A DNA stretch of 63,440 nucleotides from an uncultured Chitinophagaceae bacterium (GTDB lineage: Bacteria; Bacteroidota; Bacteroidia; Chitinophagales; Chitinophagaceae). Below the pieces are notes generated by a model, which saw nothing but the letters and a program-made list of their open reading frames with translations, made no database searches and had not been told where the DNA came from. Positions 25,200 through 27,594 of the stretch are shown piece by piece. Made by a program: the position numbers and the translations under genes. The first letter of the stretch is position 1, and each line of letters begins with the position of its first letter. Location: positions 1 to 63,440 of the forward strand of contig CBFGYO010000001.1 of assembly GCA_965652975.1 (NCBI GenBank), in the 5' to 3' direction.

Positions 25200-26150
25200 C
25201 TATTTATGTAGCAATTGCAATATTTCTAGGTGTGGTTTCATATTTACCAGCGTACTGGTTTCCAGGAACTGCTTCAGGTGTTTGTAGAAATGGCTGTAAT
25301 CATAGTAGCCATATAACGAATAATTGAAATCGTGGGGCGTATTCACGAGGTGAGCAGTTGCCTTACGTATCCGCATTACCTGTAGTGCCTGCTTGCTGCT
25401 TATACCGGTGCAGGATTCAAAGTAGCGTTGCAATGTGCGAGGAGAAATATCAAATCTCGCTGCCAGGTCTTCGATTGAACGCGAAAAATCGTTCTTTTTA
25501 AAACACTCATCCAGTATCTTACTTACAATTGTAGCCGGTTGAAGCGAGCCTTCATACTTACTCAATAAAGTTGAAAAATAGCTGGAAAGGATCGCAGTTC
25601 TCTTTTCGAAACTGGCGGCCTCCTTTACCACATCAATAATCGTTTCGTCGAGCAGGTAGCTCAGCGGGTATAAATACTCCTTATACTCAGCAAAATTGAT
25701 TTTCTTTTCAAATATCACAGGTGATATGCGAAACTTGATACCAAAGAGGTGGTTGCCGGGTTTATGAAAACATTCAATGGCATTATATCTTGGAAGAAAA
25801 CAATCGGTGCGCATGTTAAACTTTTTATCGCTCACCTGCATTATGAAGGGCGTACCGAGATTGATGATATAAGTATAGCCAATATTGGGAAACTGTGCAT
25901 CGGAAAAACCTTTGGGATATTGCTTCCACAAGTGCGCAAACTTCGTTTCCCAAAAAAAATCAATGAAATGACTTAACGACGAGGGTGGAGGTACCCTGTG
26001 GTAATTTTCTTCAAAATGATCACTATGGAAAAATTCTATATGCTGCACGCATTCGGGATTGAATGCTAAGGTAAGACGAACGCAGTTTCGCAAACCCTTA
26101 CAGCCATTACAACTACTCCAAACCCGTAATCGAGGGAGTAACCACCGCAT
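25200..26150 (-). CDS. AraC-family transcriptional regulator
   Basis: C-terminal AraC HTH (DLAARFDISPRTLQRYF...). The ATG at 26150 overlaps the upstream gene by 38 nt and adds an implausible Cys/Arg-rich leader. The in-frame GTG at 26048 (VQHIEFF...) is a likely true start. Confidence 0.8.
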   Translation of the reverse strand: MRWLLPRLRVWSSCNGCKGLRNCVRLTLAFNPECVQHIEFFHSDHFEENYHRVPPPSSLSHFIDFFWETKFAHLWKQYPKGFSDAQFPNIGYTYIINLGTPFIMQVSDKKFNMRTDCFLPRYNAIECFHKPGNHLFGIKFRISPVIFEKKINFAEYKEYLYPLSYLLDETIIDVVKEAASFEKRTAILSSYFSTLLSKYEGSLQPATIVSKILDECFKKNDFSRSIEDLAARFDISPRTLQRYFESCTGISSKQALQVMRIRKATAHLVNTPHDFNYSLYGYYDYSHFYKHLKQFLETSTLVNMKPHLEILQLLHK

Positions 26151-27594
26151 TTGGAAGGTTGAAATACTCTTTTACACGATCAGGCATATTATCCTTATCT
26201 CTTACCACCAGCAACACTTTATCGTGACGCTGGATAATTATATCTTTTAATACATCGCTAAACCCTGACCCGGTTAGCTCCAGCGGACCTATTTCATCAA
26301 CGACCAACCAGCCCGGTTTATTAATAGCTTCCCGGATGATCCTGCTGGCGCGATCAAAACTTTTGCGGCTGAAGGTAAATCGACCCACCGTAAGCACATC
26401 CTCATCACCGCCCATTGATTCCATCGGAAATTGTTCACCTGTTTTTATATCATGGAATACTCTTTTTCCATTGATCAAAGGTGTAAGAATACCGTGAACA
26501 TCCGTTTTTGTATTTACCCATTCTCGCAGTGCGGTTGTTTTGCCAGATTGAATGGGACCGGTGAACAAATACACTTTTCCTGCACATGCTGAGTCCGCCA
26601 GTGAATTGGATAAAAGAGTGCGGGTAAAATGTCGGAGCCGCCGCCACCCTTTCTTCGAAGCGCTGGCGCCCCAGCTTTGAATTACAAGCTCGCGGGTACC
26701 GGGCAGTAGGGACAACACCTGCTGTATGTCTGTTTGGGATGCAGCCTGTTGTTTTTGAAGCCATTTATACAACCATGACTTTAGCAACGGTCCCGCGATA
26801 AAAAACCACGCGAGAATAATTATTAGAGACCGGATAAATATTTTGAATGAAATATGAGAAGGCAGTATGGGCCTGCCCAGGTTGAAATATGATTGAATGT
26901 ATAACGCTATCAAAGCGATCCATATCACAAATAACCACGTTTTGATTCCCTTATTTTTCCGTTGTAATGCAGGCAGTTCAATCGCATTCACAGGTTGTGA
27001 TGGCAACCTGTACAAACCGGAACTGGACCAGCTCCTTACTTTATACGGCAATCGCGAAGCCAGCCACCCAACGGCCATTCCGGTAATAAGATGAATAGCT
27101 ACATATACTCCACCAATCCATAAGCTGTAATTGGTATCTCCTTTTTGCCTGGTAAGGCTGTTAAAGAAATTGTTGATCACCTTCCAGATGTCATTGCCAT
27201 ACACTATGGTAAGAACAAGGATACGCTGCAAGCCTGATTCAAGTAATGACAATACTGCCAGCAGCACACAAGAGATTGTATAAAAACGCCTGTTCCAAAA
27301 CAGGAGTTCACCCAACAAGCCCTGGAAAAAAACGGCGATGTATGCTGGAGCTGGAGCCTGGGGACTGAGCATCATCTTAAAAACAGCGACAATAATTGTG
27401 GCCTTAATAATTGCACCTTTCTTCGGTACATACCAGGCGAGCAGGCATATACATATTACGGCGCAACTGCCAACTACCAATCCGGAAACCGGTATTTTAA
27501 ATCCATGTATAATTCCTCCCAGCATTGCCTCACAGAGAACCCACAATGCAATAATGCGATAATAGATTAGTTTGTTGGCAACTCCCGTCGGCAT
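26113..27594 (-). CDS. Fusion protein: polytopic membrane domain + C-terminal THEP1/DUF2478-like P-loop NTPase
   Basis: 493 aa. ~8 hydrophobic helices in residues 1-~290, then Walker A (FTGPIQSGKTT) and Walker B (WLVVDEIGPLE). Divergent from xdhABC. Confidence 0.7.
   Translation of the reverse strand: MPTGVANKLIYYRIIALWVLCEAMLGGIIHGFKIPVSGLVVGSCAVICICLLAWYVPKKGAIIKATIIVAVFKMMLSPQAPAPAYIAVFFQGLLGELLFWNRRFYTISCVLLAVLSLLESGLQRILVLTIVYGNDIWKVINNFFNSLTRQKGDTNYSLWIGGVYVAIHLITGMAVGWLASRLPYKVRSWSSSGLYRLPSQPVNAIELPALQRKNKGIKTWLFVIWIALIALYIQSYFNLGRPILPSHISFKIFIRSLIIILAWFFIAGPLLKSWLYKWLQKQQAASQTDIQQVLSLLPGTRELVIQSWGASASKKGWRRLRHFTRTLLSNSLADSACAGKVYLFTGPIQSGKTTALREWVNTKTDVHGILTPLINGKRVFHDIKTGEQFPMESMGGDEDVLTVGRFTFSRKSFDRASRIIREAINKPGWLVVDEIGPLELTGSGFSDVLKDIIIQRHDKVLLVVRDKDNMPDRVKEYFNLPNAVVTPSITGLE

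Follow-up and report, generated by a model that had tools for sequence, protein, structure and literature searches.

We analyzed a 63,440-nt stretch of DNA from an uncultured Chitinophagaceae bacterium (assembly GCA_965652975.1, contig CBFGYO010000001.1, positions 1 to 63,440 of the forward strand; hereafter the window), in which a single gene joins a polytopic membrane domain to a nucleoside triphosphatase (NTPase) domain and lies divergently from the xanthine dehydrogenase (XDH) genes xdhABC. The explanation that we favor, with a probability of roughly 55%, is that this fusion protein is an inner-membrane importer of preformed molybdenum cofactor (Moco), in the form of Mo-molybdopterin, and that its NTPase acts as a cytoplasmic helper. 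A broader proposal follows the same lines, namely that free-living Bacteroidota are Moco auxotrophs which take up the pterin cofactor ready-made, by means of a dedicated membrane protein of the S-component type with help from a THEP1-type NTPase. This would provide the first prokaryotic Moco transporter, a first physiological role for THEP1/NTPCR and an explanation for orphan molybdoenzymes, and we judge the chances for and against it to be about evenly balanced.

The genome that carries the fusion gene appears to depend on a cofactor for which it has no pathway. The assembly is 100% complete with 0.02% contamination, and searches of it for MoaC, MoeA (MoeA_N) and ModB found none, while control genomes were positive. 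Likewise, the MoaA C-terminal domain, MoaE and MoeA were found neither in this genome nor in four carriers from other genera, with controls positive in every search. Nevertheless, XdhB keeps all six catalytic residues that were checked, corresponding to Q768, E803, R881, F915, F1010 and E1262 of human xanthine oxidoreductase. These residues, together with the retained xdhC, rule out a Mo-independent XDH. Given that XdhB and XdhC are kept while the synthesis genes are missing, the enzyme depends on a cofactor that the cell is unable to synthesize. Moreover, because neither molybdopterin (MPT) synthase nor Mo insertase is present, neither a precursor nor molybdate would suffice. An original prediction made for this gene had listed delivery of molybdate or of Moco among several possible roles; molybdate delivery alone could not work in a genome that has no genes for Moco synthesis or Mo insertion, and Moco delivery is the listed option that the evidence favors. 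The same genome encodes a second xanthine oxidase (XO)-family enzyme on contig C6 (L041:7798-11657), which is of the PaoABC type and has a twin-arginine signal (RRDFLK) on its small subunit.

The distribution of the membrane protein was compared with that of MoaC across the family. In a sample of 201 Chitinophagaceae genomes, 87 have MoaC and 23 have the membrane protein, with no overlap between the two groups (Fisher p = 1.3e-6, a naive value that treats related genomes as independent). All 23 carriers encode a molybdoenzyme of the XO or dimethyl sulfoxide (DMSO) reductase family. Among the 114 genomes lacking MoaC, 52 have a molybdoenzyme, the 23 carriers included, and none of the 62 without a molybdoenzyme has the membrane protein. 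Where the enzyme is of the XdhB type, 13 of 14 MoaC-negative genomes carry the membrane protein, the exception being a 72%-complete assembly, compared with none of 14 MoaC-positive genomes. For enzymes of the DMSO reductase type, seven MoaC-negative genomes carry it and two, both fragmented assemblies, do not. The contrast can be seen even within one genus, where one genome (G055) has the membrane protein and no MoaC and another (G190) has MoaC and no membrane protein. Five further carriers, among them the cultured isolate IBVUCB2, also lack MoaC. Carriers are spread over 18 of the 151 genera in the sample, and a profile search for more divergent homologs in the remaining family genomes returned the same 23 genomes plus noise.

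Gene neighborhoods supply a second line of comparison. Among 21 family loci, the window counted, nine have the gene divergent from xdhAB(C), and about 62 of the 80 closest loci (the best 80 of 349) face xdhAB, often within a full urate-degradation operon; the proposed physical link to xdh is thus real and widespread. However, other members of the family lie beside quite different molybdoenzymes. In five of the 21 loci, the order is membrane gene, NTPase, MobA-like nucleotidyltransferase, FdhD, DUF7009 and a YdeP-like molybdopterin oxidoreductase, and in a sixth genome (G071) a YdeP-like oxidoreductase is found 2 kb off on the same contig. In G055, a protein with a MOSC domain, a Moco-dependent family, is encoded convergently with the NTPase gene (L027:9022-9660); this genome, which lacks MoaC, additionally has a NasA-like oxidoreductase. 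In another genome (G206; L124:1501-2580), a single gene joins the NTPase to a MobA-like nucleotidyltransferase and is followed by FdhD, an arrangement that ties the NTPase family to Moco tailoring. Finally, in another class of Bacteroidota the module adjoins a cluster encoding MerR, a PsrABC-like molybdoenzyme, YeeE-type sulfur transport proteins, a rhodanese and a FadL-type outer-membrane protein, and a MobA gene is often close to the module and this cluster. The neighborhood recurs with four Moco-protein families in two classes, among subfamilies that are only ~30% identical. What these surroundings share is the molybdenum cofactor and not purines.

Two further genes recur beside the membrane gene. 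A gene for a CMD/AhpD-like protein (~105 aa; L161:10593-10916; c2 in L159-L178) is conserved directly next to it in the other class, and its product might act on the cofactor as a redox helper. A gene for an EamA-family transporter adjoins it in several lineages, including some that lack the NTPase (L111:11021-11986; L033:8195-9139).

The architecture of the protein was examined with AlphaFold models of the membrane half (pLDDT, the predicted local distance difference test score, 77) and of the full-length chain (pLDDT 80). The two models contain eight transmembrane (TM) helices between residues 6 and 285, three amphipathic helices up to residue 332 and then an alpha/beta NTPase domain. This bears out the description of a 493-aa open reading frame (ORF) with about eight hydrophobic helices followed by an NTPase, as do the ORF and its translation. 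Positively charged loops (PKKG at 57-60, NRR at 101-103 and a K/R-rich stretch at 193-216) are distributed in a way that, by the positive-inside rule, suggests an N-in topology with the NTPase in the cytoplasm. Residues invariant in the family are W18, E22, G26-G27, K73, S77-P78, Y85, Q91, Q123 and Y164 in the membrane domain, and P269, L297-P298 and W308 are conserved in the region that follows it (residues 193-335).

The original prediction did not recognize the membrane half as a known transporter family, and on this point the structural comparisons lead elsewhere. When residues 2-190 were compared with the PDB (48,161 chains) using VIA-align, the best match among substrate-binding S components of energy-coupling factor (ECF) transporters was YkoE (5edl; Z 11.9, 169 residues aligned), and eleven ECF S-component entries are among the top 30 structural matches. 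The other S components, PanT and ThiT among them, have Z scores of 7-10.7, as exemplified by FolT (10.7, 10.6 and 9.4), BioY (9.8), BtuM (8.4) and CbiM (7.4). Foldseek also ranks 5EDL first for the membrane half, with a probability of 1.0. Pfam S-component families give weak matches that remain under their cut-offs, namely Trep_Strep (23.0 bits vs 28.7; E 9e-5) and ABC_cobalt (15.5 bits vs 25.2; E 0.019), and some homologs are annotated by the Joint Genome Institute as a thiamin/HMP permease component. Divergent homologs of the membrane half had no match to S-component families in Pfam, and a profile search of the PDB with this half gave nothing at E up to 10. Because three separate kinds of search agree, we accept an ECF S-component fold for the modeled membrane half, despite Z scores in the grey zone. 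However, no EcfT (CbiQ, PF02361) was found in the source genome and four other carrier genomes, in searches whose controls were positive, and the module is therefore not a canonical ECF system.

For the NTPase half, PF03266 matches residues 343-475 of the whole protein (E 9e-14, 52.1 bits vs a cut-off of 23.9), and the domain alone scores 55.9 bits (E 6e-15) against the same cut-off. The closest structures found by Foldseek are human NTPCR (2I3B) and Aquifex THEP1 (1YE8), with a probability of 1.0, TM scores of 0.59-0.65 and E 4e-4, and a single-sequence search of the PDB returned only weak matches to THEP1 and NTPCR. Since the NCBIfam THEP1 equivalog (NF010248 PRK13695) scores only 45.8 bits, far under its cut-off of 156, the domain is by sequence a relative within the THEP1 family and not a THEP1 equivalog. 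All three motifs named for it at the outset are present: a Walker A stretch (LFTGPIQSGKTT, residues 343-354), the Walker B motif (429-439) and the LLVVRD strand (461-466). In 27 fused and 14 split homologs, G351, K352, T353, T354, D433, E434, G436 and E439 are invariant, as are the GxLE signature and R465 across fused and split members, and the domain is probably active. The expected resemblance to THEP1/DUF2478 NTPases is thus sound for THEP1/NTPase_1, which is matched above cut-off, and fails for DUF2478 (PF10649), whose match is a sub-threshold echo over 55 residues (13.9 bits vs 22.3; E 0.04). KAP membership was rejected as well, as there is no match in the Pfam scan. MobB (PF03205) does not appear among the Pfam matches at E up to 10 for the four NTPase domains scanned, although the filters of HMMER may hide very weak ones, and the fusion protein has no Pfam or NCBIfam match indicating homology to ModA, ModB or ModC.

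More than 100 full-length fused homologs (480-545 aa, 56-63% identity) come from many independent assemblies, which rules out the possibility that a frameshift artificially joined two separate genes. In the family sample, about seven of the 23 carriers have the fused form, and in the rest a membrane gene (~340 aa) is followed by an adjacent NTPase gene (~165 aa). Moreover, a full-database profile search with the membrane half found 1291 relatives, 619 of them below E 1e-30, and most are of split length. Hence the fusion is genuine, but it is the less common of the two forms in which this conserved two-gene module occurs. The species-genome scan yielded the 349 loci mentioned above, of which the best 80 all belong to metagenome-assembled genomes of Chitinophagaceae or Chitinophagales plus the cultured isolate IBVUCB2. 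Homologs are currently labeled "nucleoside-triphosphatase THEP1" or "hypothetical" in databases, and a protein atlas search returned only hypothetical clusters from Bacteroidota.

If the protein does import Moco, the predicted fold and the comparative genomics suggest how it might do so. The six-helix S-component-like domain would capture the pterin cofactor on the periplasmic side and move it through the membrane. Since there is no EcfT/EcfA module in these genomes, the domain would act alone, like BtuM and BioY, or together with the two additional TM helices and the helical linker of the protein itself. Indeed, BtuM and some BioY proteins function without an ECF module. The fused NTPase, predicted to be cytoplasmic and with its catalytic motifs intact, most likely acts after transport, because both the fusions and the gene order point there. 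For example, binding or hydrolysis of NTP could release or protect the labile cofactor and hand it on to XdhC for XDH, and for enzymes that use bis-MGD (MGD, molybdopterin guanine dinucleotide) the NTPase could pass the cofactor to MobA and FdhD. It may also energize or gate transport. However, the NTPase probably assists transport and does not drive it, because four of the five genomes in which the membrane gene stands alone have no NTPase anywhere. Lacking EcfT, EcfA and any homology to Mod proteins, the module belongs to no characterized transporter system.

Several observations weigh against a Moco importer, whose basis is comparative genomics together with predicted folds. For helical bundles, Z scores of 8-12 count as a grey zone, and every Pfam match to S components is sub-threshold. 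The naive p-values of the presence and absence comparisons (1e-6 and 5e-10) overstate the case, since related genomes are not independent. Of the 52 family genomes that have a molybdoenzyme and no MoaC, 29 also lack the membrane protein, so that either another route must exist or the membrane protein is not required. Most of these 29 carry a Tat-exported (twin-arginine translocation) three-subunit enzyme that is Pao-like, and the five of them that were tested also lack MoeA; in all, about 20 family genomes have a Pao-type operon without MoaC, the membrane protein and, where tested, MoeA. A search around this operon for conserved accessory genes that might explain such auxotrophs found none. 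Outside the family, the anticorrelation with MoaC no longer holds: nine of the 26 carriers in the phylum sample have MoaC, and in one genome (G363) the gene shares a cluster with moa, moeA and mobA genes. A clear ModB was found in just one of five MoaC-positive carriers outside the family, which makes molybdate transport a live alternative there, although vitamins are commonly salvaged by organisms that also make them. The genomes with a stand-alone membrane gene also indicate that the NTPase is dispensable. No Moco riboswitch was found in 37 loci, comprising 17 family loci searched at E up to 1 and 20 loci of another class searched at the gathering threshold. Finally, free Moco is very oxygen-labile, so that no environmental source for aerobic soil or water bacteria readily suggests itself.

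It is also necessary to consider whether the protein handles Moco without transporting it. The membrane protein might be a platform for maturation or protection of the cofactor, providing storage, a shield against oxidation or hand-over to XdhC or MobA, while import occurs by another route. The 29 genomes that manage their molybdoenzymes with neither MoaC nor the membrane protein are compatible with this arrangement, as are the link between the NTPase and MobA and the CMD/AhpD-like redox protein that is a conserved neighbor in another class. However, a polytopic protein with a transporter fold would be an odd chaperone, the membrane protein occurs beside xdh without the NTPase, and these loci have no second conserved gene that might encode an importer. 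We therefore regard such a platform as unlikely.

Similarly improbable, in our view, is a new type of molybdate or tungstate uptake system that supplies the metal and not the finished cofactor. The co-occurrence with MoaC outside the family, the cluster in G363 and the four MoaC-positive carriers without a clear ModB would all fit this function, and metal-specific S components (CbiM, NikM) do exist, CbiM being among the structural matches. Within the family, however, none of the 87 Moco-making genomes has the membrane protein, including three complete ones (G046, G079 and G103) with no ModB above E 1e-20, and the protein was rejected on these grounds as the molybdate transporter of the family. 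Moreover, molybdate would be unusable in the family carriers tested, which lack MoaA, MoaC, MoaE and MoeA. The partner to which the NTPase is fused, or beside which it is encoded, is MobA, an enzyme whose substrate is completed Mo-MPT, rather than MoeA or MogA, and the best structural matches are S components of the vitamin type.

Among the options of the original prediction were roles specific to purine metabolism, namely handling of the substrate or product of XDH, tethering of the enzyme to the membrane or coupling to PuuD. The divergent arrangement with xdhAB in most of the closest loci, within purine-catabolic operons, is what one would expect if the protein handled xanthine, urate or a related solute, or served as a membrane tether. 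However, the family also adjoins enzymes of the YdeP-like, Psr-like and MOSC kinds, accompanied by MobA and FdhD, in places where purine genes are absent, and none of the 14 Moco-making genomes with XdhB carries the membrane protein. Moreover, a genome of the same genus (G135; L024, G135:C9:16000-35999) retains the fusion and its flanking genes while the block of xdhABC and M23 is missing from between them, so that the two genomes differ cleanly by one operon-sized block. Any such purine-specific function thus seems very doubtful. It is equally hard to credit that a clade which lost Moco synthesis merely happens to carry a gene unrelated to molybdenum, even though genomes of one family are not independent and carriers represent few of its genera, because the neighborhood evidence is independent of presence and absence, spanning four Moco-protein families, two classes and highly diverged subfamilies, and because G055 and G190 differ inside one genus.

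The features of the window that bear on the Moco importer candidate are collected in Table 1. The mechanically called xdhA ORF begins at TTG 27672, and XdhA homologs align only from residue 45-59 of this long ORF; an in-frame TTG at 27846 gives MIRFILNE..., and the first 58 codons of the longer ORF are probably non-coding. Because XdhA homology begins at the second TTG, the intergenic region common to the two transcription units extends from 27595 to 27845, in good agreement with the divergent control region of ~250 bp that had been anticipated. No Rfam family, the Moco riboswitch included, was found in this region, and the sole Rfam match near the gene at any locus is an unrelated 5_ureB_sRNA (L020). 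The AraC regulator that had been pointed out next to the fusion gene is indeed there. However, it has no homolog in 20 related loci, and was rejected as a component of the system because it is local and not a conserved partner. Two receptor genes are possible outer-membrane partners, neither of them conserved across loci: one for an OMP_b-brl_3/Plug receptor two genes from the fusion gene (window 22153-24657), and one for a TonB-dependent receptor directly 3′ of the membrane gene in one relative (L099:6734-8821).

Table 1. Coordinates of the fusion gene, its predicted domains and adjacent features in the window.
Feature	Position	Strand	Basis or remark
Fusion gene: membrane domain, two extra TM helices, helical linker and THEP1-type NTPase	26113..27594	-	493 aa; open ORF and translation
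Six-helix ECF S-component-like domain, residues 1-192; proposed substrate-binding/translocating part	27019..27594	-	Structural alignment, Foldseek
K/R-rich cytoplasmic loop, TM7, TM8 and three amphipathic linker helices, residues 193-335	26590..27018	-	Models, hydropathy
THEP1/NTPase_1-type P-loop NTPase domain, residues 336-493, predicted cytoplasmic	26113..26589	-	PF03266, Foldseek
Walker A, GPIQSGKTT, residues 346-354	26533..26559	-	Translation, alignment
Walker B and THEP1 signature, WLVVDEIGPLE, residues 429-439	26278..26310	-	Translation, alignment
Divergent intergenic region common to fusion gene and xdhA	27595..27845	.	251 bp
xdhA (2Fe-2S plus FAD subunit)	27846..29270	+	Pfam and TIGR02963; likely start TTG at 27846
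xdhB, Moco-binding catalytic subunit, putative client enzyme	29276..31585	+	TIGR02965, 800 bits
xdhC, Moco-insertion chaperone	31572..32546	+	PF02625 and PF13478
AraC-type regulator	25200..26150	-	HTH_18; overlaps 3′ end of fusion gene by 38 bp

According to the textbook view, Moco is not stable enough to serve as a nutrient, and each cell that uses it has to synthesize its own. We found no description of a bacterial Moco importer in our literature searches, and searches for THEP1 together with Moco, or for DUF2478, gave nothing relevant. One review states that, for most organisms, uptake of Moco as a nutrient is not possible (PMC9026282). A survey by Peng et al. (2018) described several hundred prokaryotes that have molybdoenzymes without a Moco pathway ("orphan molybdoprotein" organisms), the majority lacking Mo transporters, and suggested that they have unknown biosynthetic components or Mo-independent enzymes, and not uptake (PMC6147048). 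The gene family described here is a concrete candidate for the missing step in such organisms. If this is correct, Moco would be a shared good in microbial communities, the conserved THEP1/NTPCR family of NTPases would gain a function, and the ECF S-component fold would have a new use without an ECF module. There would also be a consequence for annotation, as members of the family are now labeled THEP1 or hypothetical.

Acquisition of the cofactor from outside has a precedent in nematodes, as C. elegans acquires dietary Moco and Haemonchus contortus lacks Moco synthesis (PMC7619442). These animals resemble the carriers in having Moco enzymes, in lacking some or all of the synthesis genes and in relying on an external supply, but they are eukaryotic. 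Among bacterial systems, ModABC, WtpABC and TupABC share with the module a genomic association with molybdenum enzymes and cofactor genes. However, they have no homology to it, and they import an oxyanion that requires the full Moco pathway, which is absent here. MobB of E. coli, which is encoded with mobA, is likewise a small Moco-linked P-loop NTPase beside or fused to a MobA-like nucleotidyltransferase, although the likeness is one of genomic position only; MobB belongs to a different P-loop lineage and gives no match in the Pfam scan. We infer that the NTPase may, much as is proposed for MobB, release, protect or transfer the cofactor (to XdhC or MobA) in a nucleotide-dependent way. THEP1 of Aquifex aeolicus (aq_1292, 1YE8) and human NTPCR (2I3B) have the same fold, Walker A, Walker B and DEIGxxE motifs, whereas the domain studied here is fused to, or encoded beside, a membrane protein or MobA. 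To our knowledge, neither THEP1 nor NTPCR has an assigned physiological role.

The ECF S components, especially YkoE (5EDL), FolT (4Z7F, 5D0Y), BioY (4DVE) and the solitary BtuM (8OVV), are also among the closest known systems. Like them, the membrane half has a six-helix fold in its models (residues 2-190), and their clients are small vitamin-like cofactors, with FolT binding a pterin. Unlike them, it has no EcfT partner in the five genomes searched, carries two extra TM helices and a helical linker, is joined to a THEP1-type NTPase in place of an ABC ATPase, and has a sequence similarity to S components that falls under the family cut-offs. For an importer that salvages Moco in bacteria, the fusion protein is the best candidate in this analysis, and it would represent a variant on the theme of S-component transporters.

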